The notes under the pieces were generated by a model. That model made no database searches. It had not been told where the DNA came from and saw only the letters and a list, made by a program, of their open reading frames with translations. From an uncultured virus (IMG/VR IMGVR_UViG_3300037961_002446) (taxonomy: Duplodnaviria; Heunggongvirae; Uroviricota; Caudoviricetes), in the IMG/VR virus record IMGVR_UViG_3300037961_002446, positions 62,001 through 94,178 of that record: a stretch of DNA of 32,178 nucleotides; one strand, written 5' to 3'. The position numbers were made by a program, and so were the translations under genes. This document shows, one piece after another, positions 4,548 through 22,531 of the stretch (its first letter is position 1; each line of letters starts with the position of its first letter).

Positions 4548-5195
4548 TCACATTAGCCATTTAGCCCAAGCCGCACCTTTCTGTATGGCACTACCTAAAC
4601 CTAATCCGCTTTGTGGAGGTTCGTAAGACATTTGGCCTTGAGCATCTATCCAATATGGACGACCATAACCATCTGTTCCACTAGGAGGAATAGGATAACC
4701 ACTACCATTATTCATAGCACCCTGCATTTGATTGTATTGTTGCATATTACCTGTTAGTCCTGCAATTGCCGCACCTGCGGTTGGTTGAGCCATTCCGCCA
4801 CTAAATCCTTGAGATTCTAGATATTGTTGTTTAGCCATCTTTCTTTGCATTACTACTTCTGTATTGATAGCCGCACCTAGAATCTTTTGAATATCTAAAT
4901 CAATATTTTCTTGAGTAATTCTCTCAAATTCTCTCATAGCATCAGCATTAATTGAGATAGTATTTCCTGATTGAGTAAATTGTAGTTTACCTAGCATCTG
5001 TGAAACTACTCTTTCAATAACATCTTCCATGAGTTTTTCTAGAGCATTAAGGAACATTTCACCATGATATTGGAAGAATTCTTCTACATGGTTTTCCTGT
5101 AAAGACAATAGATTATTCATTGATTTGAATTGTTGGTCGCCTTGTGCTTGAACTGCGCCCAAAACTGTTCCATTACTTGTTCCTAATAGTCCCAT
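4548..5195 (-). CDS. Hypothetical protein: helical core, Q/G/P/Y-rich tail and C-terminal amphipathic helix
   Basis: 215 aa, GGAGGAG RBS, ends LGSAIQKGAAWAKWLM. Confidence 0.75.
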   Translation of the reverse strand: MGLLGTSNGTVLGAVQAQGDQQFKSMNNLLSLQENHVEEFFQYHGEMFLNALEKLMEDVIERVVSQMLGKLQFTQSGNTISINADAMREFERITQENIDLDIQKILGAAINTEVVMQRKMAKQQYLESQGFSGGMAQPTAGAAIAGLTGNMQQYNQMQGAMNNGSGYPIPPSGTDGYGRPYWIDAQGQMSYEPPQSGLGLGSAIQKGAAWAKWLM

Positions 5196-5197
5196 AT

Positions 5198-5887
5198 TTA
5201 CTCCTCCACTTCTTCTTCTTTAGTTTCTTTTACCTTTTTGTTATCGGTATTTTGAGGTTTTACGCCTTGATTAATCATAAGAAAATTTAGTCTATCTGTT
5301 AATATATTAATCTCCCCAACAATTTCTATTGCTTCGTTAGTGGCTGACCTATTATCTCCTAATGTGGGTGGCTTAATAAAATAACCTGCCGCAGTTAGAG
5401 ATATAATATCTTCTTTGCTTAAATTCTTAATTGGGCCACTTTTCAATATCTTAGGTGTTTTAGGAATAAATCGCTTAAACTCTAATCCATGTTTATCTGC
5501 TAGTATCTGTTGTTGTAGCATTTCTAGTTGCATAAAATGAGCAGCGTGTTTAGGGCAGTATGTTCCCATTAAAGGTCTACCTTTTACTACTCCATCTAAA
5601 GGAATAGGTGGCCTCATGTAATCTCCTTGTTCCCATACATGATGCATTCCGCAAACTACGCATCTATCTTTTAGATTGAATTTCTTTCCATACTTAATGA
5701 AAAGCAACTTCTTAGGTTCTGCTTTCAAAACTCTAATCAATTCTTTCTGTTGCTTCTTAGGCTTGATAGCCATAAACTTGTATTCCTGAACTATACCACT
5801 TGCTCTAGCCATTTGTAATGGTGTCATTCCATAAGCAAGAGCAGGGTTAGGTGTGCTTTGTCCTATAATATTCGGTTGCTGATACAT
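5198..5887 (-). CDS. Hypothetical Zn-finger protein
   Basis: 229 aa with CVVC...CPKH putative zinc ligands, Q/P-rich N-terminus and helical C-terminus. Confidence 0.7.
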   Translation of the reverse strand: MYQQPNIIGQSTPNPALAYGMTPLQMARASGIVQEYKFMAIKPKKQQKELIRVLKAEPKKLLFIKYGKKFNLKDRCVVCGMHHVWEQGDYMRPPIPLDGVVKGRPLMGTYCPKHAAHFMQLEMLQQQILADKHGLEFKRFIPKTPKILKSGPIKNLSKEDIISLTAAGYFIKPPTLGDNRSATNEAIEIVGEINILTDRLNFLMINQGVKPQNTDNKKVKETKEEEVEE

Positions 5888-5897
5888 CTTTCATTCC

Positions 5898-6566
5898 TCA
5901 ATAATCTTTTATCATCGTCATTACGCCTCTATATACCATTTCGGGGTCTGATTTCGCTGATACTATATACTTGAAACATGGTATTCCTTTGTCGTTTAAT
6001 TGTCGCATTCCGTATGTAAAAGGTGCAAAAATCTTATGCTTCTCTATTGATTCTCCTTCTTCTAATGGATATTTTTCTCCCCATATGTCAAATTTGTTAG
6101 CCCATATTCCTACTGCCATTGGATAATCCGCTTCTTTTTTTCTTCTACCTGTTGGCCAATTATTTGCACATATTGTATCTACTAAAAATTTCCACGCTAC
6201 TTGATGGTCTAGATTTGCTTCATTATCTAAATGTCTATGGTCTATCATAAAAATAACATATTTGACTTTACGCCCTTGCATATCTTTTACCCATTCTTTC
6301 CAATAAACTGCTTCTCCTCCAATATCAGCACTCTTAATCGTATGGGAGTCGCCATCTATTTTAACATTTTTTCTTGAAGCCCTGTGTAATCCTACCGTTC
6401 TTTCTTGAATAGTAGGAACTTCTCCTCTTGTTCTTAATTGATGACTTAATGTTGTTTTACCAACCATTGTTGCACCATAGACTCCAAAATTAATAGCATG
6501 AACTTTCTTCCAAAAACCAATTATTGCTTCACCGACTAATATAGCAAAGCCTGTCATTAAGGACAA
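5898..6566 (-). CDS. Small Ras-superfamily GTPase, Arf/Sar-like
   Basis: All G motifs present: G1 GATMVGKTT, G2 RTVG, G3 DIGGE, G4 NKFD, G5 SAK, plus Arf-like VIFMID. Hydrophobic/amphipathic N-terminal helix. TTG start at 6566 or ATG at 6557. Confidence 0.88.
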   Translation of the reverse strand: MSLMTGFAILVGEAIIGFWKKVHAINFGVYGATMVGKTTLSHQLRTRGEVPTIQERTVGLHRASRKNVKIDGDSHTIKSADIGGEAVYWKEWVKDMQGRKVKYVIFMIDHRHLDNEANLDHQVAWKFLVDTICANNWPTGRRKKEADYPMAVGIWANKFDIWGEKYPLEEGESIEKHKIFAPFTYGMRQLNDKGIPCFKYIVSAKSDPEMVYRGVMTMIKDY

Positions 6567-6567
6567 T

Positions 6568-6786
6568 TCAATGCCCCCATAACCCCTTTACTGCGTCAAT
6601 AATCCAACCCATTATGTTAATGTCAAAGACTCCCATAATGTTTCCAATTAGAAACATAGCAAGTGTAGAGAATCCTCCCCAAAACCACGCTCTCATTTTC
6701 AAAAAGAAAATATCAGCAGAATGCGCTCTAGATTGATTATATGCATAATCAGAATCAGAAAACCCTAGTAGGTCGCTAACCACCAC
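6568..6786 (-). CDS. Small membrane protein
   Basis: 72 aa. Hydrophobic stretch AWFWGGFSTLAMFLIGNIMGVF followed by amphipathic IMGWIIDAVKGLW. Confidence 0.7.
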   Translation of the reverse strand: MVVSDLLGFSDSDYAYNQSRAHSADIFFLKMRAWFWGGFSTLAMFLIGNIMGVFDINIMGWIIDAVKGLWGH

Positions 6787-6798
6787 TTAACCAACCCC

Positions 6799-7182
6799 TT
6801 ACTGTAGGGCGGCTAAAAACTCATTACCAACGGTATTTTCATCTTCTTGCGTTGGTGGTGCGTAAAAACTAGTATTGTATTGTCTAGCACTTTCACGCAT
6901 CTTTTGGCGTTGTTGTTCATCTCTAGCCTTTCTTTCCCAAAATGCCGCTATCTTTCTATCAAGTAGCCACATTTCTATCTTATCGTTGAGTGCTAAATCA
7001 AACAATGCCTTCATAACCATAATTGCACCAATCGTTCCTAAACCAAATAGGAATGAATGCGCCATTGGGCCATAAGGGAATCCTGTTCCGAATTGAGCAT
7101 AAGCAAATACATTTGCTCCGCTTAATGCTCCTACGAACAATATAGTCATAACTAGTCTAGTATCTTGGCTTAAGACGGCCAT
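6799..7182 (-). CDS. Membrane protein with two TM helices and a cytoplasmic coiled coil
   Basis: Likely start MAVLSQD at 7182 (GAGGT RBS; ORF track starts at 7206). TMs LVMTILFVGALSGANVFAYA and FLFGLGTIGAIMVMKALF, then a charged helix. Confidence 0.75.
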   Translation of the reverse strand: MAVLSQDTRLVMTILFVGALSGANVFAYAQFGTGFPYGPMAHSFLFGLGTIGAIMVMKALFDLALNDKIEMWLLDRKIAAFWERKARDEQQRQKMRESARQYNTSFYAPPTQEDENTVGNEFLAALQ

Positions 7183-7192
7183 ATTAAAAACC

Positions 7193-7474
7193 TCAAATAT
7201 ATTCAACGGTAATGTCTAGGTCAGCAGGAACAACTGCTGTAAGTCCTAATTTACATAGGACTCCATGCATATCAAATTCCATACTACTATTAGCGGGAAC
7301 TGTTAGTCTAGCAACTATTTTTCCTGATGCCGAAGTATTATCATAAATAGAAGCCGTTATTGCCGCATTGGTATCATTTGCCCCGTGAACAGAAATTAGT
7401 TTTATCTGTCCTGAAACAACTACCTCAGTTGCGCCTGTTATTAGACCACTACTTCTACAACCAACCATAGACAT
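7193..7474 (-). CDS. Small beta-rich virion protein (possible capsid decoration)
   Basis: 93 aa, rich in small and beta-branched residues, two genes downstream of the MCP, GGAGG RBS. Confidence 0.45.
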   Translation of the reverse strand: MSMVGCRSSGLITGATEVVVSGQIKLISVHGANDTNAAITASIYDNTSASGKIVARLTVPANSSMEFDMHGVLCKLGLTAVVPADLDITVEYI

Positions 7475-7871: not shown

Positions 7872-9293
7872 TCACTTTAGGTTAGTAATCTTACCTTGAC
7901 CCTTGAAGTAAGAACAACCAACTTCCGCAATTGTTCTGTAAAGAGCCTTGTTTCCTAGAGTGCCGACACCGAATGGGTTTCCGTTGCTAATACCATCTTC
8001 AAAGTATTGAGTTGGTTTCATAACAGATAGCCACAAATGGTCTGTATCAAGGAATAGCATATCACTTAGTTTAGTGGCAGTTCCTTGTCCTGTTTGGCTC
8101 ATAGCCGATACAGGAATCAAAGGAATGTCGTAGTAAGTTGAAACTCTAAATCCGACTTCTTGACCTTTTGTTCCTCTAACACCATTAACGGTAGGGACAA
8201 TTTCCTTTCTATCCATGAATCTCTCTTGAGCCTGTAGTAGGTCAGCGAGTGCTTGAATAGTATCATATCCTGTTAGAATAACCTTTGGTGAACCACCAGA
8301 TTCACGGAGTAGTCTTAGCATTTTGTTAATCTTTGCTAGAGTTAAATCCGCTTGGCTTCCGGCAGTATAATCTGCTCCAAAGTCTACTTGAGAATCTAGA
8401 TAACCTGTGGTTGCTCCTCTTTCCTTACCGTAAAGAGTTTTCATAGTATCTCCTACTGCGTCATCAACTGTTTGACCCGCAGTTCCACCTGTATACAGTT
8501 CATCAGTAGCCATAGCAGTTATTTCAGCATTTGAAGAAACAACCTTCAATAGAGAAGTATATCCTCTATCTAGATTTGCTAGAGATGTGCTTCCACCATC
8601 AACACCAATATAAAATTCTAAAGGCATAACTAGCATCTTGTTCTGAACTTCTGCATGGTGCTTACCCATATCTTCACGCATTTGCGCTCTAATATCGCCA
8701 ATTCCATCATCAATTGCCGCCATTTCCATAGCCAATTCGCTGAAATCAAATTGATGTGCAATAATTTTTGGGCTTGTAAATAGTGTGTCATATTCAGGTG
8801 CAAGAGAAACTAGACCATCAGCAACAGTATCAAGTTTAGCGTTTTCAGGAACACCACCAATACCATCTGCTCTAGGAGTTGTTCCTCCAATTTGACCTGC
8901 TCCTGTTCCTGCCGCTAAAGCAACACCATCACCGTCTGTATTGTCAGCATTTCCTGAAACTGCTAGGAAATTACCGCTTCCACCTGTAGGGCGAGAAGTC
9001 ATAATTCTCCAACCGCTAGAAGTATATGGCCTCTTTGAAATAATTGAAAGAGCATTACACTCTCTATTTAGCATAGACCAAACTTTTTGGCCGTAAATCT
9101 TGTTGTAAAGAGCATTTACATTTGCGGCAGTAGTGCCTGTTCCCAAATCTGCTCCTGCTGATTGACCTGCATGACCCGCATGAAGTCCTGCAATTGCGCC
9201 ATTAGACTTCAACAATTGATTGTTAAAACCTGTTGCACCTGTCAATCCGTAAGTTCTTGCTTCTAAATCTGCTATTGTGTTTACATAACTCAT
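7872..9293 (-). CDS. Major capsid protein (HK97 fold, halovirus/magrovirus type)
   Basis: 473 aa directly downstream of the prohead protease. Motifs YGQKVWSMLN..NALSIISKRPY..SGWR, PKIIAHQFDFSE and terminal FKGQGKITNLK. GGTGA RBS. Confidence 0.88.
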   Translation of the reverse strand: MSYVNTIADLEARTYGLTGATGFNNQLLKSNGAIAGLHAGHAGQSAGADLGTGTTAANVNALYNKIYGQKVWSMLNRECNALSIISKRPYTSSGWRIMTSRPTGGSGNFLAVSGNADNTDGDGVALAAGTGAGQIGGTTPRADGIGGVPENAKLDTVADGLVSLAPEYDTLFTSPKIIAHQFDFSELAMEMAAIDDGIGDIRAQMREDMGKHHAEVQNKMLVMPLEFYIGVDGGSTSLANLDRGYTSLLKVVSSNAEITAMATDELYTGGTAGQTVDDAVGDTMKTLYGKERGATTGYLDSQVDFGADYTAGSQADLTLAKINKMLRLLRESGGSPKVILTGYDTIQALADLLQAQERFMDRKEIVPTVNGVRGTKGQEVGFRVSTYYDIPLIPVSAMSQTGQGTATKLSDMLFLDTDHLWLSVMKPTQYFEDGISNGNPFGVGTLGNKALYRTIAEVGCSYFKGQGKITNLK

Positions 9294-10538: not shown

Positions 10539-13061
10539 CTAATTAGACGGTATTTCCTTATCCTTGAACCTATCTTCATATATGTTCCATACTCCTTTAT
10601 CTGATTCTTTATCAGCAGGTTCTTGCTTATATCCCGTCCAAGCCAACCACATCTTTTGGCCTTTAACAGGAACTACACGGATATGCAGTTTAGTTTCAAA
10701 CTTATTTCCTTTAAGGAAGTATTCATGATAGCCATGCCTTTGAACACCTAATTCAACTTCTCCGCTATCAATCACCTTTTCTCTTTCAAAGTTGTTTGCT
10801 ACTTGAGCAGGATATTTACCTGCTTTACCAAACAAATCAAACAACTCTTCATCACTTTCAATATCAACTAACCAATTAATAGTTTCATCACCTAACTTCA
10901 TGACTATGTTGATTAGGTCGTCTTTTCTAGCGTAAATCTTGAATTCGCCCTTTCTGTATTCATCAGGAGTTTTGTATTTTTTAATTTCATCTTCCTGATA
11001 TATCTTATCACTATCAGCGATTAACTTATTATCATCAAACGAAATACCTTCTCTATTTTCAGCCCACTCTTTTAGTTTAGAATATTCTGATTCCAATACA
11101 TCTTCATACAATGATGGTCTTTCTTTGACTAGTAGATTATGTAGGGCTTTTGGAGTTAAACCATTTTTATCTCTTAATAGATTAAAGATAGCAACAGTTA
11201 GTTCAGATTGTTTTGTCTTCATGATTTCTTCGGCCTTAGACTTCCACATATCTAAATCCTTGAGAGCATTCTTTGACATTAGGTTATCTTTCTCAAACCC
11301 ATAGATAGTGAACCCGTCCATGTCTGACTTTATGATAATATTAGTTTCCCCATGAATATAATCTGTGATAGATATTCCTTTTTCTAATGCTTTAACATCG
11401 TAGTTGAGTGATTTCTTTGTATCTTGTGAAAGCAACTCTAGTGTTATTTCTTTATCAGGCATATCAACTTCAGGAACTTCTATAACTTTTGCTGAATACA
11501 AAGTATATCTATCTCCTGTTCTTTTTACTTCATCAACCTTAACTCTAATAATATCGCCCACATCAACATTAATTTTAGTATTCAGTGCCTTACCCACTTC
11601 CATGAATTTTTTACCATCTACTTCTTTGATGTATTTTCCTTCTTTATCTGTTGCTCCAATATCAACACCGACAGTATAAGAAAATAAATTACTCTTGGTC
11701 TTTTTCTTATCTAAGACAACTACATCTAAATCTACAAACTTCTTCCACTTAACCCACTTTGGATTCTTTCTAGTTCCGACATAGTAAGTAGAAGTAATAT
11801 CTTTGATAACTACACCTTCAGAAGTAGGCATCTCCATTATCTTCTTAGAATATTCTTCAATGTCTTCTAGATTATCGGCTTCTCTTGTATCTTTCTTAGA
11901 GGGGAAATTGATAGCATCAGTAGAATGAGAAGAATAATTGTTAAAGAGAGTAGTGATTCTTTTTTCTAGTGGTTCATCTAATAAGTTTTCATCATTATGT
12001 CGCATAATATCAAACACATGACACCTTAGTTTAGCATCAGGATATTTTCCTTTAAACACATGAGCAATAGTATCTGCTCTATGTAATGGCTCATCACCAT
12101 CAAACAAAATCAATTCACCGTCAAGAATACAATCTCCATATTTCTTTTCTTTTAGTTCTTCAACTTGTTCTTTACATTTGTCTGTAATGTCTTTTTCATT
12201 ATAGGAAAACACTTTGATATTGTTGTCTATCTTATGTAGTTGAATTCTCATTCCATCGTATTTTTCTTGAACAATCCAAGTCCCACTAAATCCTTTCAAT
12301 TCTTTCATATCTTCTATGTCAAAGATACGATACATTGGTTTGTTAGGAATAATAAAATCAGATTCAGCCTTTTTCTTGTCGGTCTTTTGGAAGTCGGACT
12401 TCTGTTCAATGTCTTTCAAGTCCTCAACATATTCTTCACTATGCCTTGACAAAAGCAAGAGGTCAAGCATTTCCATAGCGGCCTTGACTTTCTTCTCAAC
12501 CTTCTTTGAGTCTTTTCCATCTCCATAATGCTCAATAATGTAGAGGGAAATATCGTCCGATTCTAGGTCAAGACCCTCAAGACCCTCCGTAATATCGTCT
12601 TTTTCTATGTCTTTGATTGCTAATAGTTCAGGAGAAAGTGCTTTATTATCGTTTCTTAAAGCATAATGCACGAATTTCATCATCGTTTCTGGATTAGACA
12701 TTAATTCCTCTAAGACACTCCCTTTAAATCTTTTAGCGAATGGGTCTTCAACTAAATCTGATTTATACCTTAGAGTTTTAATTCCCTCATATAATGACTT
12801 AGCCTGTGGGCTTTTAGGGTCTTTTGCTTCTTTAGAATCTACAAGGTCTTCGTCAATGAAATTTTTCATTTCTTTACCTGCGGCATCTAATTCACCATAA
12901 GATTCTCTAATCATTTCAACTGCATTTCTCCAACGACCCCCGTATTCTTCGGGGTCTGTTCTAGCAGAAAGATAGGCTACTCTTGTTTTTTCAAATAGCC
13001 TCAAAATTTCTTCTGAGGGCATTTTGTCTTTTTCAATATTAGCCAACTTCAACGATACCAC
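10539..13061 (-). CDS. lig: ATP-dependent DNA ligase with long N- and C-terminal extensions
   Basis: Motif I QEKYDGMR, III ILDGEL, IIIa FDIM, IV EGVVIK, V WVKWK, then an OB-fold-like region. 840 aa. Confidence 0.9.
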   Translation of the reverse strand: MVSLKLANIEKDKMPSEEILRLFEKTRVAYLSARTDPEEYGGRWRNAVEMIRESYGELDAAGKEMKNFIDEDLVDSKEAKDPKSPQAKSLYEGIKTLRYKSDLVEDPFAKRFKGSVLEELMSNPETMMKFVHYALRNDNKALSPELLAIKDIEKDDITEGLEGLDLESDDISLYIIEHYGDGKDSKKVEKKVKAAMEMLDLLLLSRHSEEYVEDLKDIEQKSDFQKTDKKKAESDFIIPNKPMYRIFDIEDMKELKGFSGTWIVQEKYDGMRIQLHKIDNNIKVFSYNEKDITDKCKEQVEELKEKKYGDCILDGELILFDGDEPLHRADTIAHVFKGKYPDAKLRCHVFDIMRHNDENLLDEPLEKRITTLFNNYSSHSTDAINFPSKKDTREADNLEDIEEYSKKIMEMPTSEGVVIKDITSTYYVGTRKNPKWVKWKKFVDLDVVVLDKKKTKSNLFSYTVGVDIGATDKEGKYIKEVDGKKFMEVGKALNTKINVDVGDIIRVKVDEVKRTGDRYTLYSAKVIEVPEVDMPDKEITLELLSQDTKKSLNYDVKALEKGISITDYIHGETNIIIKSDMDGFTIYGFEKDNLMSKNALKDLDMWKSKAEEIMKTKQSELTVAIFNLLRDKNGLTPKALHNLLVKERPSLYEDVLESEYSKLKEWAENREGISFDDNKLIADSDKIYQEDEIKKYKTPDEYRKGEFKIYARKDDLINIVMKLGDETINWLVDIESDEELFDLFGKAGKYPAQVANNFEREKVIDSGEVELGVQRHGYHEYFLKGNKFETKLHIRVVPVKGQKMWLAWTGYKQEPADKESDKGVWNIYEDRFKDKEIPSN

Positions 13062-14181: not shown

Positions 14182-15920
14182 CTTCTTCCCTCCACTAGTC
14201 TATATTCGTCTGTTCTATCATCACGAATAATTTGTCTTCCCATTTCTCTTTCTAAAGAATTTGTAAATTGTTCAACATTTTCATAGGCAGTTTCTATTTC
14301 TGCTCCTAGCCTATCAAGAGTTCTAATATCACTATTATTGAAAGTATCTAGCCCTTCTATTAGTTCAATTCCTTCAATCGCTATTTGAGTTGTTCTAGCA
14401 GGTCTTTGTCCTGCTTCACCGCTAATCCAATCCATGAATTCTTCCGCTTCTCTTTCATCAAGAGTATCAATAATGCTTGACATTTTCTTTGTTTTAGTAT
14501 CAATGGTATTTAGATACCTAACTACTCTTTGAAAATATCTTTTGACTTGACTATCCCTTCTTTCTACTAATTCCTTAATTTGTCTTCTTTCAGCAAGAGT
14601 ATTTCCTTCGGGTCTTGTAGACCTTCTAGACATTCTATAAAATAATTCAGTAAGTCTTTGTAGTTCAGGCTGATATTGAACAACTCTATCAATTTCTCCA
14701 ATGACCTTTTCAAGTTTGACTCTTTCAATATCAATATCTTCCGCTAATTCTCTAGTGGCTTCTTCAATATATTTACTAGGATTATTTCTAATATCAATTA
14801 AATCTTGATTGATTGCTCTAAGTTTTTTACCTAGTTCGGAGTCTTCTTGTATATTAGAAACCTTAGTTTCGCTTAGTGTTTTAACAGCATCAACAAGTTT
14901 TTGCACCTTTCTAGCAATTATTTTTTCTTCCCCTTGTTCTTGTATGGATTCTAATTCAATAATAACTTCTCCAATGTATTCCAATTTAGGGACTAAACTA
15001 TCAGTATGCTTTCTTATTCTATTGAGAGTCTTAACTGCTTTTTCTTGGTCTTCATCAGGAATAGGCATATCTCTTACTCTAGCAATAGCCCTTTGAATAT
15101 CCTTTTTGTATCTTCCAATATTTTTGTATGCGGTAGGTTGCCTCTTCCATGTATTAGTATGTAAGCGAATAAAAGCCTGTTTGAGTGTCATATCTGAACC
15201 TGTCAAATTAGCATCATATGTATTTATCAACTCTTGAGTTAATTCAGAAATATTGATTTCTCTACCTGAGCCTTCTTTGTCAGAAGTAGCATTTATCATG
15301 AAATTACCTGCGGCATTGTAGTGCTTTCTATATTTATTAGATAGATAAGTAGGTTCTTTCTCAAGAAGTTTCATTAGATTAAGATAAGAATTGGATTCCG
15401 CCTGTGAGTTAAAAGTATTAGCGTATGCGTTTTGTCCTTCAAAGGAATATCCTGATGGTTCTTCATTATCCCTTCTTCCTTGAACATTCTCTACCATAGC
15501 CTTTGTAGCCTTTAGATACTTCTCAATCTTTTTTATTTCTCTATTGAATTTAGAATATTCTTTATCTTTAGAAGTTCTAGTTTTTGGTTTATCTTCTAAG
15601 TCAGCAGACAAATCTCCTGCTTGTTCAGCAGAAGTATCATCTCTTTCTCTTTCTTCTGGATTTTGTGCGGCTTGTTCCGCTTCTGACATTTGTTCTGCTC
15701 TTTCAGCATCAAGTTCTTCTTCTTCTCTAAATTCATCTTCTGCTTTAGCAATATATTTCCTGTAAGAAACAATATTTTCAGGGCTAATGTTTTCTATAAG
15801 AGAATCTTTTATTTCAGAAATAGATGCATCTGATTTAACTAATGCCATAGTATCATTATCTAAATCAGCCTTCAAAAGAATAGCCTTCAAGGATTTATTT
15901 TTAGATAATTCAAATAACAT
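14178..15920 (-). CDS. Large coiled-coil protein, possible internal head protein
   Basis: 580 aa, E/K/R-rich heptads, between portal and protease, GGTGA RBS. Confidence 0.7.
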   Translation of the reverse strand: MLFELSKNKSLKAILLKADLDNDTMALVKSDASISEIKDSLIENISPENIVSYRKYIAKAEDEFREEEELDAERAEQMSEAEQAAQNPEERERDDTSAEQAGDLSADLEDKPKTRTSKDKEYSKFNREIKKIEKYLKATKAMVENVQGRRDNEEPSGYSFEGQNAYANTFNSQAESNSYLNLMKLLEKEPTYLSNKYRKHYNAAGNFMINATSDKEGSGREINISELTQELINTYDANLTGSDMTLKQAFIRLHTNTWKRQPTAYKNIGRYKKDIQRAIARVRDMPIPDEDQEKAVKTLNRIRKHTDSLVPKLEYIGEVIIELESIQEQGEEKIIARKVQKLVDAVKTLSETKVSNIQEDSELGKKLRAINQDLIDIRNNPSKYIEEATRELAEDIDIERVKLEKVIGEIDRVVQYQPELQRLTELFYRMSRRSTRPEGNTLAERRQIKELVERRDSQVKRYFQRVVRYLNTIDTKTKKMSSIIDTLDEREAEEFMDWISGEAGQRPARTTQIAIEGIELIEGLDTFNNSDIRTLDRLGAEIETAYENVEQFTNSLEREMGRQIIRDDRTDEYRLVEGRR

Positions 15921-17805: not shown

Positions 17806-18699
17806 CTATTCCGCAACAGGCTTGGCTTCTGTTATGAATGCTTCGGGAACGGCAACGCCACGCTCTAAGTTTCTAACTAACTGAGTAGCATAATCTAAAC
17901 TGCTTATATCCACATTAGTTTCATATCCATTATTATCCGCCCAATGAATTAATTGATTAGTAGAAAGATTACTGCCACTATTAGGTATGAAAGGACAACC
18001 CCCTAATCCATTAATGCTTGAATCAAATTTAGTGATTCCCCATTCAGCCGCCACTTTTACATTATCAAAAATATTTCTTCTTATCTTTGGATTCTCATGA
18101 AGATGTAAAGCAATATCAGCATTCAATCCTCTAGTTAATTCTAGAGTCTGAACCATTTGTGTAGGGTGTGCGACTCCTATTGTATCACATAATACAACTG
18201 TTTCAGCCAAGTAGTCTGCTTTTAACATAGCATCTTTGAGAGAATGTTCTTGTGGTTTGCCTTCAAAAGGACAACCGAAAGCACAGGAAATATATGCTCT
18301 TACATTTTTTCTATCTATGTCTATTAGCATTTCATCTAATTCTTCAAACTTATCTTGTAGGCTCATGTTAAGATTTCTTTTATTGAATTCCTTAGAAACA
18401 GAAAAAAATACATTCATCTTTTTTGCTCCTACTTCTGTTGCTCTATCAAATCCTTTCTTGTTAGGAATAAGAACTCCAAAGTCGCCTAAATCTTCTGTGG
18501 CTTCAAAGACTTTTTCTGCATCAGCCATATTAGGAACTCTCTTAGGGTGAACAAATGAAGCAATCTCCATATCTTCTAAACCTGCATAGTATAGTTCCTT
18601 AATCAAACTAATTTTATTATTTGTAGACATAGAGAATTTACTATTCTGTAGGCCATCTCTCGGCCCAACTTCATAAATTTCTATATCCATTATACTCAC
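17806..18699 (-). CDS. hmgL: Hydroxymethylglutaryl-CoA lyase (DRE-TIM metallolyase)
   Basis: IYEVGPRDGLQN, SFVHPKRVPNMADA, ISCAFGCPFEG, CDTIG, HLH metal site, catalytic GLGGCPF loop. Confidence 0.9.
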   Translation of the reverse strand: MSIMDIEIYEVGPRDGLQNSKFSMSTNNKISLIKELYYAGLEDMEIASFVHPKRVPNMADAEKVFEATEDLGDFGVLIPNKKGFDRATEVGAKKMNVFFSVSKEFNKRNLNMSLQDKFEELDEMLIDIDRKNVRAYISCAFGCPFEGKPQEHSLKDAMLKADYLAETVVLCDTIGVAHPTQMVQTLELTRGLNADIALHLHENPKIRRNIFDNVKVAAEWGITKFDSSINGLGGCPFIPNSGSNLSTNQLIHWADNNGYETNVDISSLDYATQLVRNLERGVAVPEAFITEAKPVAE

Positions 18700-20552
18700 A
18701 ACTTGCTCGCTAAGAACCTAACATGGTGGCTCATTTGATTATCGGGGTATGCTTTTAGTTCTTCAATGGTTATCCACTTGTAATCACTATGCTCAAAAGA
18801 TAATGTAGGATTCCATTCTTCTTCTACATCTACTCTAAAGCAGTGATATTTCTTTGGTGGAGTCATATTCTTATCAAAGTGAACGCCTACTTTAGAAGAG
18901 GGTTTCTTGAATAATCCTAGTTCTTCACCTGCTTCAATCATACAGACTTTTTCAGCATCAGGAGTTCCATCTTCATTAAACTCATCAAGTTCTTCTATTT
19001 TACCACCTGCAAATTCCCAAAGACCTATCATTGTATCTTCTTCAGGAGAACGCTCAACAATTAGAATCTTATCTCCTTTGTAAACTGCTACACCTGCGGC
19101 ATGGCGAACACCGTCTTTATCTAACAAGAATTTCTTGGGGTTATCTCCTTTAGCAAACCAAGAGAGTCCTTTTCTTTCCATTTCTTCTTCTGATTTAGCA
19201 ATAATCCCACCAATATTTTCTAGTTCGTCCATCACAGACATTTTACAGTTGTCTTTGTATTTTTGAATATCATCTAAATAAATTCCTTCTTTTAGCCAAT
19301 CAAAACCTACATGGTCTTTATGATTCTCCCACTTCATTAGTTTGAAAATTTCATCACAACGGCTCTTATACCAATCAGCCTTCTTGTAAGATTTTTTCAT
19401 TCGTATTAATTCCAATAGTAGTTCAGCATTACCTTTCTTTAGCCTAAAATGCGGCAAGCATTTTGTTAGCAATTTTGTCACATCGTCCTGTGAATAAAAA
19501 TTAAGCCTGTTAATTAGTCTAGTATCTTGTGGTGATTTTTGGTCTAAGTGCATACGACCAAAACCAATTGACTTATGCATTTCTTCCATGAATGCTCGGC
19601 CTCTAGTTCCTGTGGCAACTAACCCCACTCTAGGATTCATATTGCGGTCAAGTGTGATATAGCCATCTGAGTCAATAAAAGCAGCACAGTAGGCCCAAAT
19701 ATTCTTTTTCATCATAGATGGCATTTTGTAATATGCTCCATTAGATGAAACAATATCTAGTTTCTTTACCATCTTAGAAATCATATTAGGAGAAGATATT
19801 TTGAAAAGAGGAGTAGGCATTTTTTCATGGATTTCTCTTGCACCTATTCCTTGATTTTCACAAACTGCCTTTAGAATAAAATCCTCTTGTCTTTGTTTCT
19901 TAGTCTTAGTAATTGATTGGTCTGTAATTTTAGCGAGGGCATCTCTAAAAGATTTCTTGGCACTTCTCATTTCTTTATGGATTTGACTGTATTCTTGGGA
20001 GTAGGCCATTCCTTGTTGTTCCAAATCTAATTCCCAATACTTACACAAAGCATCTACTGTTTCTCTTCTTAGTTCAGCATCTTTCATTTTGTGTAGTTTA
20101 TGCAGGTCTTTTTCATTAAACCTCATCTGTAAAAGAGCAGGAGTGTATGGTGAAAGCCAAGAAATAGATTTGATACATTTCTGTAGATGGTCAGCATAAG
20201 CATTAATCATAGTGTCTATTGCCTTAGACATTTTTTCTCTTTGTTCTCCTTTGAGTTCTCTCCTAGCCTTTCTCATTTTCTTAACTAGGTCGGGAATAGT
20301 TTGGTCTTGAACCATGTATTCACTAGGAAAACTGTTGAGTTGTTTTCTTGCTTCTGTAGCATTGATGTTTCTTTCTATAGATAGTTTGGTGATTTCTTCA
20401 TGTTCAGACATGACATGAGTAAGCGTTCCTTTTAGTTCAGTATCTAGTTCTCTCTCTACAGACTCTTTGACTTCGGCTTCTTCTTCATCAAGTTCAGCAA
20501 GTCTTTGCATTTGTTGTGCCGCTTGCCTGTATTTGTCAGCCTGTTCTGTCAT
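18696..20552 (-). CDS. Multidomain protein: helical region, wHTH-like, LAGLIDADG and Nudix hydrolase
   Basis: YCAAFIDSDGYI LAGLIDADG helix near 19660-19692. C-terminal WEFAGGKIE...EAGEELGL Nudix box and LSFEHSDYKW. GGTGA RBS. Confidence 0.8.
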   Translation of the reverse strand: MTEQADKYRQAAQQMQRLAELDEEEAEVKESVERELDTELKGTLTHVMSEHEEITKLSIERNINATEARKQLNSFPSEYMVQDQTIPDLVKKMRKARRELKGEQREKMSKAIDTMINAYADHLQKCIKSISWLSPYTPALLQMRFNEKDLHKLHKMKDAELRRETVDALCKYWELDLEQQGMAYSQEYSQIHKEMRSAKKSFRDALAKITDQSITKTKKQRQEDFILKAVCENQGIGAREIHEKMPTPLFKISSPNMISKMVKKLDIVSSNGAYYKMPSMMKKNIWAYCAAFIDSDGYITLDRNMNPRVGLVATGTRGRAFMEEMHKSIGFGRMHLDQKSPQDTRLINRLNFYSQDDVTKLLTKCLPHFRLKKGNAELLLELIRMKKSYKKADWYKSRCDEIFKLMKWENHKDHVGFDWLKEGIYLDDIQKYKDNCKMSVMDELENIGGIIAKSEEEMERKGLSWFAKGDNPKKFLLDKDGVRHAAGVAVYKGDKILIVERSPEEDTMIGLWEFAGGKIEELDEFNEDGTPDAEKVCMIEAGEELGLFKKPSSKVGVHFDKNMTPPKKYHCFRVDVEEEWNPTLSFEHSDYKWITIEELKAYPDNQMSHHVRFLASKL

Positions 20553-20561
20553 TTTATCACC

Positions 20562-21983
20562 TTAGAAATTTAAACCGATAGCGTTTCTTGTTTGCGGTTT
20601 ATCATCACCAAACAACCCTAAATCATCTAGCAATATGAAATTGTCGTTGGATTGGTAAGTAGCCGCATTCGCCAAAGCCAAACTCATTACCATGTCATCG
20701 TGTGCGCCTACTCCTTCAAATTTACCCCGTTCAGTAATAGCAAACATAGACATTTCTTCTATTAAGGCAGAAGTCGTCCTTCTACTTTCCTCATTACCGT
20801 ATGGGAAATTCATCTTATTATTTTCTAGAGTCATCTGTAGATTCAAAATAATTTCTTGCTTTTTTCTTCTAGTGGTGTTGAAGTCATGAACATTCAAGTC
20901 AGCCACTTGTCTTAATTCTTGAGTAAATGATTTAGCGAAAGTATTTGTTTCAAACAAGATAACTTCAGGCCTAAACATTTGACCAATGAGTTTTACCTTC
21001 TGTATGTTTTCTCTAAACTCTACATTCTTTGCTCGGTCAATATAGACAATAGATTTGTTTTCATTCTCGTCCATCTCTAATACAGTAATTACATTGTAGT
21101 CGCCATCTGTAGATATAGCAGGGTCTACGCCTACAAAGTATTTGTAGCCTTCACGCTTCAACGGCTTCAAAACTAAATCTTTATTCTTAGCACCTTCTAA
21201 ATGCTCAGGGTTAAACAAAGAAGTTCCTGTAGAAATAGGCACACACATATATTCTCTAGTAAATTTAAGAGAACCTATTTCAGCCTTTCTCGCCATCAAT
21301 GAATCATAATCCCAACGACTTGGCCATAACGGTTCATTAAGAGCATTTAGGCAAGGATAGGTTCTAAGAGTATATGCTGCATTTTCAGACAACTGAGCAT
21401 AAATATCTGTATAACTAAATGGTGTCCCAATAACTCTTAGTGAAGCAGAATGATGTAGTGTAGGAATCATATCACCGTAAAACCAATCAGTGACTTTCTG
21501 AATTCCTGACATACTAAATTCTTTCAAAGGGTCGTCAATAATAATCTCTTGAGGGTGAAGTCCACGAATCTGTGAACCAACAGAACGCTCTAAGATTTGA
21601 TTGCCATTTGTTAGAGTAATGTTTCCAATAGCCCAACCTCTTGCAGGTTTGTATTTCTTTAGCATTGGGTGATTGAACATTTTGTCTATGTCCCTCATGT
21701 GAACCATAGTCTGTTTTTGGTTAGAAGAAATGTATAGCATTTGATATGGAGGAGGTTGAAAAATCAAATTCCAAACAACCCAACTATGCATGAATACAGA
21801 TTTACCATGACCTCTTGAACAAATAATTACACTTCTTTGTGTAGTGTTCATTAGTTCTAGCCATTCTTCTTGGTGTTTAGCAAACTCCCAACCTAGCACT
21901 TGCTGAAAAAAATACGGAAAGGAATTTTTGGATAATTCCATATCCATTTGATGTTCAAAATTAAGTTGCTCTAAATCAGACAT
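20562..21983 (-). CDS. terL: Terminase large subunit
   Basis: Walker A SRGHGKS, Walker B IIIDD, motif III IGTP, RNase H-like nuclease GVDPA and HDDMVMS. Confidence 0.93.
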   Translation of the reverse strand: MSDLEQLNFEHQMDMELSKNSFPYFFQQVLGWEFAKHQEEWLELMNTTQRSVIICSRGHGKSVFMHSWVVWNLIFQPPPYQMLYISSNQKQTMVHMRDIDKMFNHPMLKKYKPARGWAIGNITLTNGNQILERSVGSQIRGLHPQEIIIDDPLKEFSMSGIQKVTDWFYGDMIPTLHHSASLRVIGTPFSYTDIYAQLSENAAYTLRTYPCLNALNEPLWPSRWDYDSLMARKAEIGSLKFTREYMCVPISTGTSLFNPEHLEGAKNKDLVLKPLKREGYKYFVGVDPAISTDGDYNVITVLEMDENENKSIVYIDRAKNVEFRENIQKVKLIGQMFRPEVILFETNTFAKSFTQELRQVADLNVHDFNTTRRKKQEIILNLQMTLENNKMNFPYGNEESRRTTSALIEEMSMFAITERGKFEGVGAHDDMVMSLALANAATYQSNDNFILLDDLGLFGDDKPQTRNAIGLNF

Positions 21984-22531
21984 TACCTTCCACCCATATT
22001 AAACGGGTTAAACGGTTCATCTCTTCTCGGCCTAGCAGTAGGTCGTTGTTGTGAAGAATGATTAGGTTTAACCCCATTGAAATAAATATCTATCTTTTCG
22101 GCATTAGAAGGATAGTTTCTTCCACTAGATTTATCATCAGGACTAACATGAGTTAGTAGAATTACTTTGCTATATGGCTCATTTTGTTTTGTTCTCAATT
22201 CACTTACTTTAAGTTGCACTCTAGGTAGTTTTCCTTCTGTCATTACCTTTATCATTAGGAAACTTCTATCTCTAGTGCTTGAATTTAGATAACACCAATA
22301 GTCGCCAACTGAAAGTTGTTTTAACCTAGCCTCAATATCAGGACTGATAGTATTATGGCTAAGTTTTCCCTTGTATCTTTCATTCATGCTATACAGATAA
22401 TGAGGCATAAAAATAATCGCTACATCGTCATCTTCTTTTGTATTAGCGTAACCTTCGCCTCTTTTGTCTTTAGGTCTAGGGTCTTCGCCATAATCTTGAC
22501 TAGGCTTTAATTTAAGAATATCCCACCACAT
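21983..22531 (-). CDS. Hypothetical protein with MWWDILK leader
   Basis: 182 aa, abuts the terL start. Confidence 0.7.
   Translation of the reverse strand: MWWDILKLKPSQDYGEDPRPKDKRGEGYANTKEDDDVAIIFMPHYLYSMNERYKGKLSHNTISPDIEARLKQLSVGDYWCYLNSSTRDRSFLMIKVMTEGKLPRVQLKVSELRTKQNEPYSKVILLTHVSPDDKSSGRNYPSNAEKIDIYFNGVKPNHSSQQRPTARPRRDEPFNPFNMGGR

Follow-up and report, generated by a model that had tools for sequence, protein, structure and literature searches.

In Haloferax volcanii, the Arf-like GTPase ArvA drives vesicle formation together with two operon partners; ArvA has an N-terminal hydrophobic helix, and one of the partners is a Zn-ribbon protein (PMC10927574). Its supplementary file 11, a per-genome taxonomy table, holds 51 Thermoplasmatota rows, and the word Poseidoniales occurs in none of its rows. 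For the Arf family, an amphipathic N-terminal helix is named as the defining feature (10.1101/2024.02.28.582541), and a mobile-like region of the Asgard archaeon Atabeyarchaeia encodes two Arf-clade GTPases (PMC11529989). Judged by analogy, the ArvA/B/C operon would be the closest functional counterpart of the five-gene cassette described here, which is itself undescribed and is a candidate for how its viruses act on, or exit through, the host membrane.

The window, that is, the whole stretch of 32,178 nucleotides that was analysed, is the final 32 kb of a complete 94-kb genome (G000) of a magrovirus, a tailed virus of Poseidoniales (Marine Group II, abundant archaea of the ocean). A haloarchaeal host such as Haloferax, implied by an earlier sequence-only reading, is rejected because the GC content of the window is 0.32-0.41 and the nearest named relative is Poseidoniales virus YSH_150918. 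The cassette occupies positions 4548-7206 on the minus strand and consists of five genes, c1-c5, with gaps of 12, 1, 10 and 2 nt. The five ORFs and the gaps of 1-12 nt were thus as the earlier reading had described them, while 7182, given there as the cassette end, is the first ATG of c1, whose ORF extends to a TTG at 7206. On one side lies the capsid gene (7872-9293; Pfam SU10_MCP, E 3.2e-07), with two small ORFs in between, and on the other side, after a gap of 12 nt behind c5, a block of genes encoding 553, 437, 64 and 177 aa, followed by the tail tube gene (Phage_tube_2, E 4.4e-12).

Among related loci of the window lineage (g1), the cassette was complete and colinear in 71 of 80, and the other nine end at the locus edge. 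The same five-gene architecture was found in three further lineages (g2, g3 and g4), the GTPases of the four lineages being 30-40% identical, so the synteny predicted by the sequence-only reading was borne out, and the cassette is confirmed as real, far beyond chance.

The third gene, c3 (5898..6566, minus strand), encodes a 222-aa protein with G1-G5 intact, which on its motifs and model is a real small GTPase of Arf/Sar/SRbeta-like kind with predicted nucleotide binding. Its N-terminal hydrophobic helix at residues 2-22, SLMTGFAILVGEAIIGFWKKV (6501-6563), is followed on the same strand by G1 GATMVGKT (6453-6476), the G2 Thr in QERTVG (6390-6407), G3 DIGG with a following Glu (6312-6326), Trp92 at D+11 (6291-6293), G4 NKFD (6087-6098) and G5 SAK (5952-5960), so that G1, G3, G4 and G5 are found in order. 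TVG, DIGG, VIFMID, NKFD and the hydrophobic N-terminus had been quoted before, and each is present, in addition to GATMVGKT and SAK. In an alignment of 12 diverse members, G31, G36, K37, T39, D81, G84, N157, K158 and D160 are invariant.

DxGG together with a Trp at D+11 is a signature of Arf and G-alpha proteins. In the GTPases of the four lineages, this Trp was present in 173/173 and DxGG in 169/173, with DxAG in the remaining four, and the alignment of c3 to G-alpha z shows the shared D+11 Trp. The catalytic Gln after DxGG was not found in g1, where the residue is Glu in 80/80 members; it is Gln in 54, Glu in 19, Asp in 6 and His in 1 of 80 members of g2, His in 4/4 of g3 and Gln in 9/9 of g4. 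Because Glu replaces the usual Gln in all g1 members, hydrolysis by the g1 GTPase may be unusual. The N-terminal helix, which the AF2 model also predicts at residues 2-22, is hydrophobic in c3 (KD 1.78), as had been claimed, and in all full-length family members (KD 1.0-2.3). With a muH in c3 of only 0.19, it does not resemble the classical amphipathic type.

Modelled with AF2 (pLDDT 89.7, pTM 0.85), c3 gave at least 500 PDB matches at E<=0.001 in Foldseek, with Rabs leading and Rab10 as the best (2.8e-10). In VIA-align, ranks 1-4 were taken by Arf6 (Z 18.2), Arf6 (18.2), SRbeta (17.8) and Sar1 (17.7), and a RagA-like protein (17.4) and Gs (16.7) followed within about 1 Z; identity to the solved structures is 13-20%. 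In Pfam, where the cut-offs are 22.3 bits for Arf (PF00025) and 25 bits for SRPRB (PF09439), the window c3 had no Arf match at E<=0.1 and stayed below the Arf, Ras and Roc cut-offs, whereas its distant relatives P0171 (57.2 bits) and P0166 (27.2 bits) exceed the Arf cut-off and P0121 (16.8 bits) does not. Weak SRPRB matches were obtained for 10/27 members, all below the cut-off (best 22.5 bits, E 8.1e-05), and the c3-family profile matches the Asgard ArfR structure 8OUN at E 2.3e-07. Of the earlier label "Arf/Sar-like GTPase", the small GTPase with Arf/Sar/SRbeta-like fold and motifs stands, and formal membership of Pfam Arf does not; c3 belongs to a deeply divergent, virus-specific clade.

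The Pfam family matched by most members was MMR_HSR1 (22/27, best E 1.4e-04), and the Roc, Ras and EF-Tu models match the c3 family weakly. These matches, together with variable ORFs that may interrupt the cassette just before or after c3, would fit a cytosolic regulatory or ribosome-associated GTPase of the Era/EngA-like, MMR_HSR1 type whose neighbours are unrelated small genes. We consider this improbable. All such Pfam matches fall below or near the cut-offs and cover no more than the first, N-terminal half of the G domain, VIA-align places Arf6, SRbeta and Sar1 first by fold, the family keeps its hydrophobic N-terminal helix, and retention of the five-gene order in four lineages at such low GTPase identity is unexpected for unrelated neighbours.

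Compared with the Arf family, c3 has the small G domain, an N-terminal helix directly before strand 1, DxGG with Trp at D+11, and Arf6 and Sar1 among its best VIA-align matches. It differs in its Glu in place of the catalytic Gln, in a 20-40 residue insertion before G4, in belonging to a tailed virus whose host is an archaeon outside Asgard, and in a helix that is hydrophobic where that of Arf is described as amphipathic (10.1101/2024.02.28.582541). With SRbeta, c3 shares an Arf-like G domain behind an N-terminal hydrophobic membrane anchor (predicted for c3) and Z scores of 17.8, 16.2 and 15.2 for three SRbeta entries. DxPG and a His after DxGG are SRbeta features, and some c3-family members have DxPG and those of g3 have the His. 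Unlike SRbeta, however, the family remains below the SRPRB cut-off (22.5 vs 25 bits), the cassette has no SRalpha-like partner and the context is viral; to our knowledge, SRbeta is not known from archaea. The mimivirus Rab (PDB 5XC5), also a Ras-superfamily switch carried by a virus, is among the better fold matches of c3 (Foldseek TM 0.57/0.73, VIA Z 16.4), and the Atabeyarchaeia mobile-like region is likewise an element with its own Arf GTPases (PMC11529989). Those GTPases, however, are close copies of host-type Rab or Arf proteins, whereas c3 is deeply divergent and has fixed membrane-protein neighbours in a head-tailed virus of prokaryotes.

The origin of c3 was searched on a larger scale, and 399 homologues were collected. 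At E<=0.001, c3 matched 62 of 1.84 billion representative proteins, none resembling an ordinary cellular small GTPase, and among the full-length matches, at 27-41% identity, are the other viral lineages and two orphan sequences from contigs of 1.5 kb. In 185,579 species genomes there was a single match, a gene 89% identical to c3, whose 12.2-kb contig had been assigned to a Maricaulis MAG but is most likely a mis-binned viral one, and tblastn with c3 gave no match among 50,697 phage records. Recent capture of a small GTPase from the host or from bacteria, without a role dedicated to the virus, would explain the JGI automatic name of some homologues, "GTPase SAR1 family protein", and the finding that the nearest named non-viral ESM Atlas clusters consist of bacterial G-domain proteins, with Pfam Arf in 17-67% of them. 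Since no close cellular homologue was found among the 1.84 billion representatives, however, and since the divergence of c3 parallels that of the virus lineages, recent capture, which the earlier reading had named as an outcome that would refute it, is itself largely refuted and now highly improbable.

Upstream of the GTPase gene, c1 (6799..7206, minus strand) encodes a predicted membrane protein of 135 aa from the TTG, or of 127 aa should translation begin at the ATG at 7182. Two TM segments, at residues 18-35 (7102-7155; hydrophobicity KD19 1.98) and 52-69 (7000-7053; KD19 1.92), are followed by a Lys/Arg/Glu-rich helical tail at residues 75-115 (6862-6984; muH 0.47). The 72-aa product of c2 (6568..6786, minus strand) is a predicted single-pass membrane protein, with a TM segment by hydrophobicity at residues ~42-59 (6610-6663) and a C-terminal amphipathic stretch, DINIMGWIIDAVKGLWGH (6571-6624). 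In g2, g3 and g4, a c1 counterpart of the same build occurs in the same place, and the c2 counterparts are proteins of 70-100 aa with one TM segment, encoded immediately upstream of the GTPase gene. Neither c1 nor c2 matched a family in Pfam or PHROGs, holin families included; for c4 and c5, hydrophobicity gave no TM segment.

Class II holins are defined by two TM segments and a charged C-terminal tail. c1 is likewise small, with two TM segments, a short uncharged loop, a highly charged C-terminal tail and a place in a late operon, but the likeness is one of architecture alone, as no Pfam or PHROG holin family matches it. A further difference is that no endolysin is found among the genome ORFs scanned, which may not be surprising where the host has no wall polymer. 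We know of no holin that works with a GTPase.

Downstream, c4 (5198..5887, minus strand) encodes a 229-aa orphan with the Cys/His motifs CVVCG (5648-5662) and TYCPKH (5546-5563), and is the sole neighbour of the GTPase with statistically supported homology across lineages: hhalign of g1 against g2 gave a probability of 96% and E 2.6e-09, and an HMM from g1 matches 79 ORFs in g2 loci. C76, G80, V100, G103, T109, Y110, C111 and P112 are invariant in 43 sequences of g1-g3, and H114 is conserved in at least 90% of them. The Cys/His motifs behind the earlier term "Zn finger" are therefore present, but the set is lineage-limited: the second Cys, C79, is confined to g1, none lies nearby in locus L084, and SYSPD replaces TYCPxH in g4. 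None of the 448 members of the c4 family has a Pfam domain or an informative name, and neither fold nor sequence searches gave a PDB match, the AF2 model being poor (pLDDT 64.8).

The last gene, c5 (4548..5195, minus strand), encodes a 215-aa, Gln/Gly/Pro/Tyr-rich orphan with a central helical domain containing ITQENID (4899-4919) and a C-terminal Gly-rich tail, GLGLGSAIQKGAAWAKWLM (4551-4607); this central domain and tail are common to 20 aligned sequences of the four lineages. hhalign of c5 between g1 and g2 is weak (probability 25%), and its E of 7.6e-04, like those of c1 (0.017) and c2 (0.02), is to be read against off-diagonal controls of 0.0027-0.58, so that c1, c2 and c5 are tied across lineages mainly by position and build. 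For c1, c2, c4 and c5, no Pfam family was found even at E<=10, chance-level rows aside, and no PADLOC defence model family was matched by c1-c5 at E<=0.01.

Within g1, the median identity to the window protein is 82% for c1 (77 related loci), 75% for c2 (78 loci), 71% for c4 and 82% for c5, compared with 67% for the capsid protein of these loci. Because similarity of the GTPase was the criterion by which they had been selected, the GTPase value, and no other, is biased. Extra ORFs lie between c2 and c3 or between c3 and c4 in 22/71 g1 cassettes, and therefore tight translational coupling is not required.

The earlier placement of the cassette inside the morphogenesis region holds for g1, where it stands between capsid and neck/tail genes on the strand of the virion genes with junctions of 1-14 nt, but not for g2, where it lies 20-23 kb from the capsid gene in two genomes (G002 and G003), indicating an autonomous module that moves as a unit. 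The g1 arrangement would also suit virion-associated or assembly proteins, with c1-c5 being internal or ejected proteins that form a channel through the host membrane at entry, or a membrane-anchored head-assembly platform, and the GTPase acting as an assembly checkpoint or injected effector. TM segments are frequent in the ejection proteins and tape measures of tailed phages, and the membrane is where T4 proheads begin to form. The g3 cassette, which is preceded by a small beta-rich ORF and a chaperonin gene, and the match of the c5 central domain to phrog_14074 "virion structural protein" point the same way. However, that match is weak and restricted to g1 (3/20 members, best E 6.5e-04), and the distance in g2 argues against such a role. 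In addition, nine small hypothetical genes, none annotated as a GTPase, separate the capsid from the tail-chaperone genes in HCTV-1, a related virus of haloarchaea, the tblastn search of phage records was empty, and we know of no small GTPase that is a virion component of a tailed virus. A virion role for the cassette is thus considered unlikely.

The resemblance to ArvA/B/C lies in a small GTPase of Arf-like kind whose N-terminal helix is hydrophobic, in the GTPase gene being followed by two conserved partner genes in one operon, one of them Cys-rich (Zn-ribbon), and in weak MMR_HSR1 matches with Arf as the deeper match for both ArvA and the c3 relatives (PMC10927574). For ArvA, a role in membrane deformation has been shown. 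The cassette differs in that no relative of ArvB (DUF2073) or ArvC (OapC, PF09845) is found among c1-c5 or elsewhere in the genome, and in two extra, predicted integral membrane proteins upstream. OapC was found in none of the six frames of G000, in a search whose control was positive in 3/14 known genomes.

Alternatively, the module might remodel the host membrane for ends other than release, such as ArvA-like vesicles, a membrane-bound compartment for replication or assembly, the exclusion of superinfecting viruses or the masking of receptors. The membrane and GTPase features of the cassette apply here too, the module is autonomous in position in g2, and ArvA with its operon partners sets a precedent for vesicle formation in Euryarchaeota; moreover, because the cited taxonomy table has no Poseidoniales row, the host may lack an Arv-type system and the virus may bring its own (PMC10927574). 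Against it stand the missing ArvB and ArvC relatives, with PF09845 absent from the genome and Pfam silent on the four neighbours, and strong conservation and a late-operon place in an obligately lytic-looking virus, which fit release at least as well. Remodelling for such ends therefore appears a rather unlikely purpose.

As the best explanation, which we put forward tentatively, the cassette encodes a GTP switch module that is anchored in the membrane, acts late and most likely serves the release of virions. c1-c5 would form one conserved, late-transcribed module acting at the host cytoplasmic membrane, in which c3, anchored to the membrane through its hydrophobic N-terminal helix, would serve as a GTP switch of Arf/Sar/SRbeta type. 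c1, as a two-TM hairpin with a charged cytoplasmic coiled-coil tail of class II holin-like build, and c2, with a single TM segment and an amphipathic end, would be the integral membrane components, and c4 and c5 soluble, virus-specific partners with a regulatory, effector or scaffolding part. By loading or hydrolysing GTP, c3 would time or drive assembly of the membrane proteins, which would open, deform or pinch the membrane and let finished virions leave a host whose envelope is no more than a membrane and an S-layer. What we infer from these genes is attachment to the membrane, dependence on GTP, contacts among c1-c5 and the egress role.

The fuller version, GTP-timed egress in which the virus-specific switch recruits or releases holin-like membrane proteins and two orphan partners and thereby opens or pinches the host membrane, is possible but doubtful. 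If true, it would give the first example of GTPase-driven release by a prokaryotic virus, and a virus-borne, non-Asgard case of the "small GTPase plus membrane helix" principle by which eukaryotes recruit coats. The position of the cassette within the virion operon of g1 and the weak match of c5 to a virion protein family count against release, and a structural role fits them equally.

Holin and endolysin families were matched by none of the 35 window proteins (Pfam, and for 14 of them also PHROGs) and by none of 50 further genome ORFs (Pfam), which extends the earlier statement that the window holds no such genes to ORFs from the rest of the genome. On the late strand, no small membrane proteins besides c1 and c2 are encoded, the other TM-bearing ORF, of 598 aa, being probably the tape measure; this and the lack of other lysis genes speak for a release role. 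The early strand, however, carries two tiny TM ORFs (G000 15157-15443), which are alternative membrane actors.

The 94,178-bp record, of which the window covers bases 62001-94178, is rated 100% complete, and the minus strand is the strand of all real genes in the window. The genes on this strand encode a capsid protein (Pfam SU10_MCP, E 3.2e-07), a prohead protease (Pfam, E 2.2e-08), a portal (Pfam, E 2.1e-11), a large terminase (Pfam) and a 600-aa tail tube protein (Phage_tube_2, E 4.4e-12), the N-terminus of which is given by the gene starting at window base 808. Outside the window, the genome also encodes a clamp-loader-like ATPase, a group II chaperonin, a histone-fold protein and nucleases (Pfam). 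The capsid proteins of Haloarcula tailed viruses and of viruses assigned to methanogens share 23-30% identity with the one encoded here, the small GTPase c3 considered below is 75% identical to its homologue gp088, a hypothetical protein from Poseidoniales virus YSH_150918, and the GC content of the window was 0.32-0.41. Based on genome content, capsid relatives, gp088 and GC content, the virus belongs to the magroviruses, which are tailed and infect Marine Group II archaea, and not to the viruses of haloarchaea. According to PMC5434244, magroviruses rank among the most abundant surface-ocean viruses.

The five-gene membrane cassette described from the sequence is present as five minus-strand ORFs at window positions 4548-7206 (c1 to c5), separated by gaps of 12, 1, 10 and 2 nt. 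The 2-TM protein c1 (135 aa) has hydrophobic segments at residues 18-35 (KD 1.98) and 52-69 (KD 1.92) followed by a Lys/Arg/Glu-rich helix, and c2 (72 aa) has a single hydrophobic segment at residues 42-59 and an amphipathic C-terminus. The GTPase c3 (222 aa) carries the motifs G1 GATMVGKT, the Thr in ERTVG, G3 DIGG, G4 NKFD and G5 SAK, and its N-terminus, SLMTGFAILVGEAIIGFWKKV, continues straight into strand 1. A Cys/His-motif orphan (c4) and a Gln/Gly-rich orphan (c5), neither with a hydrophobic segment, make up the remainder.

As a single sequence, c3 matched Pfam Roc (E 0.0086, 16.8 bits against a cut-off of 27) and NCBIfam small_GTP (E 1.5e-04, 21.6 bits against a cut-off of 42.5) only weakly, and no PDB chain better than E 0.14. 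A profile of 27 family members matched 1043 PDB sequences at E<=1, the best being Rab33B and KRas at about 1e-08, with matches covering the N-terminal half only. The AF2 model is confident (pLDDT 89.7, pTM 0.85); its strands and helices follow one another as in a small GTPase, and a further helix occupies residues 2-22. Foldseek returned at least 500 PDB matches for this model, Rabs being on top (E about 3e-10, query TM 0.5-0.57). In VIA-align, which is independent of Foldseek and in which rows up to 1 Z apart are ties, the comparison with 48,161 representative chains was led by Arf6 (Z 18.2, twice), SRbeta, the beta subunit of the signal recognition particle receptor (17.8), and Sar1 (17.7), followed by a Lokiarchaeal RagA-like protein (17.4), Gs (16.7) and mimivirus Rab (16.4); by entry title, 8 of the top 12 were Arf, Sar, SRbeta, G-alpha or Arl proteins.

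The Pfam Arf cut-off was passed over nearly the whole model by two distant relatives that the exhaustive search described below had returned, P0171 (57.2 bits) and P0166 (27.2 bits), both singletons on 1.5-1.6-kb contigs with no relatives among the viral contigs; in the word-indexed search P0171 stood alone. The 27 members individually matched MMR_HSR1 (22), Roc (19), Ras (11), SRPRB (10), Arf (6) and G-alpha (6). Across the four divergent lineages that carry the cassette (g1, the window's own, to g4), switch II reads DxGG in 169 of 173 sequences and DxAG in 4, with Trp at D+11 in all 173, an arrangement also visible in the HMMER alignment of c3 to G-alpha z and which we take to be the Arf/G-alpha type of switch II. 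The residue after DxGG was Glu in g1 (80/80), Gln in g2 (54/80) and g4 (9/9), and His in g3 (4/4). In the ESM Atlas, the nearest named non-viral clusters were bacterial G-domain clusters, partly labelled Arf, and one Asgard Arf/Gtr1 cluster. In our reading, c3 is a genuine small GTPase of the Arf/Sar/SRbeta/G-alpha branch. The Arf-type assignment made earlier stands for the branch but not for formal Arf membership, which fails because the divergence is too great. Calling c3 a GTPase is not new, since the JGI pipeline labels some homologues 'GTPase SAR1 family protein'.

According to the Asgard ArfR preprint (10.1101/2024.02.28.582541), what defines an Arf protein is an amphipathic helix at the N-terminus that the interswitch toggle releases. 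Unlike that helix, the one in c3 is uniformly hydrophobic (best 18-residue KD 1.5-2.3 in g1 and 1.0-1.3 in the other lineages), the hydrophobic moment in the family is mostly 0.1-0.3, and two Lys follow the helix. In appearance it is at least as close to a permanent SRbeta-type anchor as to a switchable Arf helix. That c3 is a cytosolic regulator is considered very unlikely.

The word-indexed search gave 399 homologues of c3, and among the matches listed (120 of 399) identity was 70-89% and length 189-230 aa, many of their contigs measuring 60-98 kb. Exhaustive searching of 1.84 billion representatives gave only 62 matches at E<=0.001, none of which looked like an ordinary cellular small GTPase, and tblastn of c3 against 50,697 phage records gave no match. 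Scanning 185,579 species genomes revealed one copy, 89% identical, on a 12.2-kb contig (NZMJ01000024.1, locus L166) binned with an alphaproteobacterial Maricaulis sp. MAG, which is most likely a mis-binned magrovirus contig. On the results of these searches, recent capture from a host is excluded, such an origin being rated scarcely credible; a sporadic recent capture of an ordinary prokaryotic host GTPase had been named as one of the findings that would overturn the first interpretation. Relatives were found in at least 340 viral contigs in all (209 of g1, 127 of g2 and 4 of g3) and, for g4, in 11 metagenome loci. The relatives P0132 and P0142 were not found in viral contigs, P0132 being found afterwards in metagenome contigs.

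Synteny of all five genes, which the sequence-only reading proposed to examine, was found in every lineage. In the best 80 loci of the 209 g1 viral contigs, the cassette was complete, colinear and on one strand in 71, and in the remaining 9 the missing genes fall past the locus end. Median identity to the window was 82% for c1, 75% for c2, 85% for c3, 71% for c4 and 82% for c5, compared with 67% for the capsid protein and 65-69% for neck-region proteins of the same loci; since the loci were picked by GTPase similarity, bias is limited to the GTPase figure.

In g2 (P0136-like), the GTPase is 29-37% identical to c3. Because the GTPase was all that tblastn with the window's flanking proteins recovered from g2 loci, homology of the neighbours was sought by HMMs and hhalign. 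Despite the absent BLAST matches, the gene order in g2 is the same as in g1. It opens with two TM proteins, the first of 170-220 aa with a Gln-rich coiled coil and the second of 78-100 aa. The GTPase comes next, then in some loci an ORF of 54-75 aa, then a c4-like protein of 290-350 aa and a Gln-rich protein of 190-230 aa; a 2-TM protein of 77-94 aa usually closes the series. The HMM of g1 c4 matched 79 ORFs in g2 loci, and hhalign of g1 against g2 gave a probability of 96% (E 2.6e-09) for c4 and weak values for c5 (7.6e-04), c1 (0.017) and c2 (0.02), with off-diagonal controls at 0.0027-0.58. Across lineages, the c1 and c2 counterparts are candidate homologues. The same five genes occur in g3 (P0133-like, 4 contigs) behind a chaperonin gene, where c5 has the ITQENID motif in common with window c5, and in g4 (P0132-like), with an additional 248-260-aa acidic ORF before the GTPase and a 2-TM ORF after c5. 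PHROG scans of the neighbours in g2 and g3 gave nothing useful.

The placement of the cassette inside the morphogenesis region holds for the window's lineage but not for two g2 genomes, where it lies 20-23 kb upstream of the capsid gene. The head-neck position is therefore particular to the window's lineage, and the cassette is an autonomous module.

In 22 of the 71 complete cassettes, variable accessory ORFs of 96-211 aa occupy the junction c2|c3 or the junction c3|c4 (L054 5056-5691 and 5706-5999, L003 5445-5996, L068 5224-5514, L009 6666-7235, L032 5007-5465, L035 6666-6965). Many of them share the start peptide MW(F/K/W)(N/D/S)(I/V)LK, which begins 26 of 4366 plus-strand ORFs in loci L001-L160 and also a 182-aa minus-strand window ORF (21983-22531) just upstream of the terminase gene. 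They look like an undescribed moron-like gene family with a common leader.

The c4 family comprises 448 proteins, named only 'hypothetical protein' or by gene-call coordinates and having no Pfam domain. In 43 sequences of g1-g3, C76, G80, V100, G103 and T109-Y110-C111-P112 were invariant and H114 nearly so. The Zn finger assigned to c4 earlier is plausible in the window's lineage, but there is no family-wide need for a zinc site because the CxxC of window c4 occurs in g1 only and in g4 SYSPD replaces TYCPxH. The AF2 model of c4 is of low confidence (pLDDT 64.8) and had no Foldseek match at E<=0.001; the c4 profile had no PDB match at E<=1, and Atlas feature scores up to 0.78 were at noise level. 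Complex prediction of c3 and c4 with GTP and Mg (ipSAE 0.00, two runs without controls) neither supports nor opposes binding. In all four lineages, the centre of c5 is a helical domain, which lies between a variable arm rich in Gln, Gly and Pro and a Gly-rich tail, and in 3 of 20 members there is a weak match to a PHROG with the annotation virion structural protein. That c1-c5 are virion or entry proteins is judged unlikely, with these weak matches on one side and the movable position of the cassette on the other. No cassette protein matched the defence-system models.

In Haloferax volcanii, the Arf-like GTPase ArvA, which has a hydrophobic N-terminal helix, drives vesicle formation together with its operon partners ArvB and ArvC (Zn-ribbon), and knockout gives fewer vesicles and overexpression more, as described in PMC10927574. 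No relative of ArvB or ArvC was found in the viral cassette. Supplementary file 11 of that paper (per-genome taxonomy) has 51 Thermoplasmatota rows, and no row contains the word Poseidoniales. Membrane remodelling by the cassette for a purpose other than release is regarded as unlikely.

As the sequence-only reading had noted for the window, no holin, endolysin or other lysis family was recognised in its 35 proteins by Pfam, 14 of which were also compared with PHROGs, and elsewhere in the genome, where 80 ORFs have 70 aa or more, Pfam found none in the 50 that were scanned, the 30 left out being most of the shorter ones and some antisense to neighbours. Only four ORFs on the late strand bear TM segments, namely c1, c2, c3 and the gene of a probable tape measure of 598 aa, in which four hydrophobic segments were seen. 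The build of c1 resembles that of a class II holin, and no holin family matched c1. The best reading, a tentative one, is that the cassette would act as a late, membrane-anchored GTP switch module controlling or executing virion release. For the exit of tailed archaeal viruses from host cells that lack a wall polymer, this strongly conserved five-gene module offers a clear biochemical handle, the GTPase. The genome's only other small membrane-protein candidates were two overlapping 57-aa TM ORFs on the early (plus) strand (genome positions 15157-15330 and 15270-15443).

No description of the cassette or of a magrovirus GTPase was found in the Creative Commons PMC and bioRxiv literature, subscription journals and bioRxiv supplements being outside this search; the main text of the main magrovirus papers contains no word beginning 'GTP', and related open literature (on Asgard archaea, vesicles and egress) does not treat magrovirus genes by title or abstract. 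The nearest published cases are mimivirus Rab (PDB 5XC5) and, reported in PMC11529989, a mobile-like region in which an Asgard genome encodes two Arf-clade GTPases. The new elements are the four-lineage cassette anatomy with its counts and movable position, the alternation of Glu, Gln and His at the catalytic position, the absence of the c4 Cys/His motif from one lineage, the hydrophobic, SRbeta-like character of the c3 helix, and the ArvA/B/C comparison with its negative partner test. To the Arf-like switches known from eukaryotes, Asgard archaea and the ArvA family, the cassette adds a virus-specific clade.

Several other features of the genome were observed. Between the portal and terminase genes lie, on the minus strand, an HMGL-like (aldolase/lyase TIM barrel) gene (window 17806-18699) and a gene for a 618-aa protein with a C-terminal NUDIX domain (window 18696-20552), found by Pfam and probably auxiliary metabolic genes. 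There are two ATP-dependent ligase genes, one encoding an 840-aa protein with a ligase domain (window 10539-13061, minus strand) between the prohead protease and the portal block, and one, within the replication block, a canonical ligase of 511 aa that has N, M and C domains (genome 27869-29401; L180:8869-10401). The family B DNA polymerase is split (genome 36618-38267, 38271-38855 and 39396-40307; L180:17618-19267, L180:19271-19855 and L181:1396-2307) into an N-terminal part with the exonuclease domain and the start of the polymerase domain and a separate C-terminal part, and a MUG113/T5orf172-domain ORF, homing-endonuclease-like in appearance, lies between them. Giant orphan ORFs without Pfam or PHROG match were a 2223-aa ORF in the tail region (genome 49902-56570; L181:11902-18570, minus strand) and, immediately upstream of the g2 cassette, a second ORF of about 2026 aa (L084 3-6083). 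A 118-aa minus-strand protein (genome 4116-4469; L179:4116-4469) matches Pfam Kyano_Gp96 (E 2.3e-20), a family named after cyanophages, while the virus here is archaeal.
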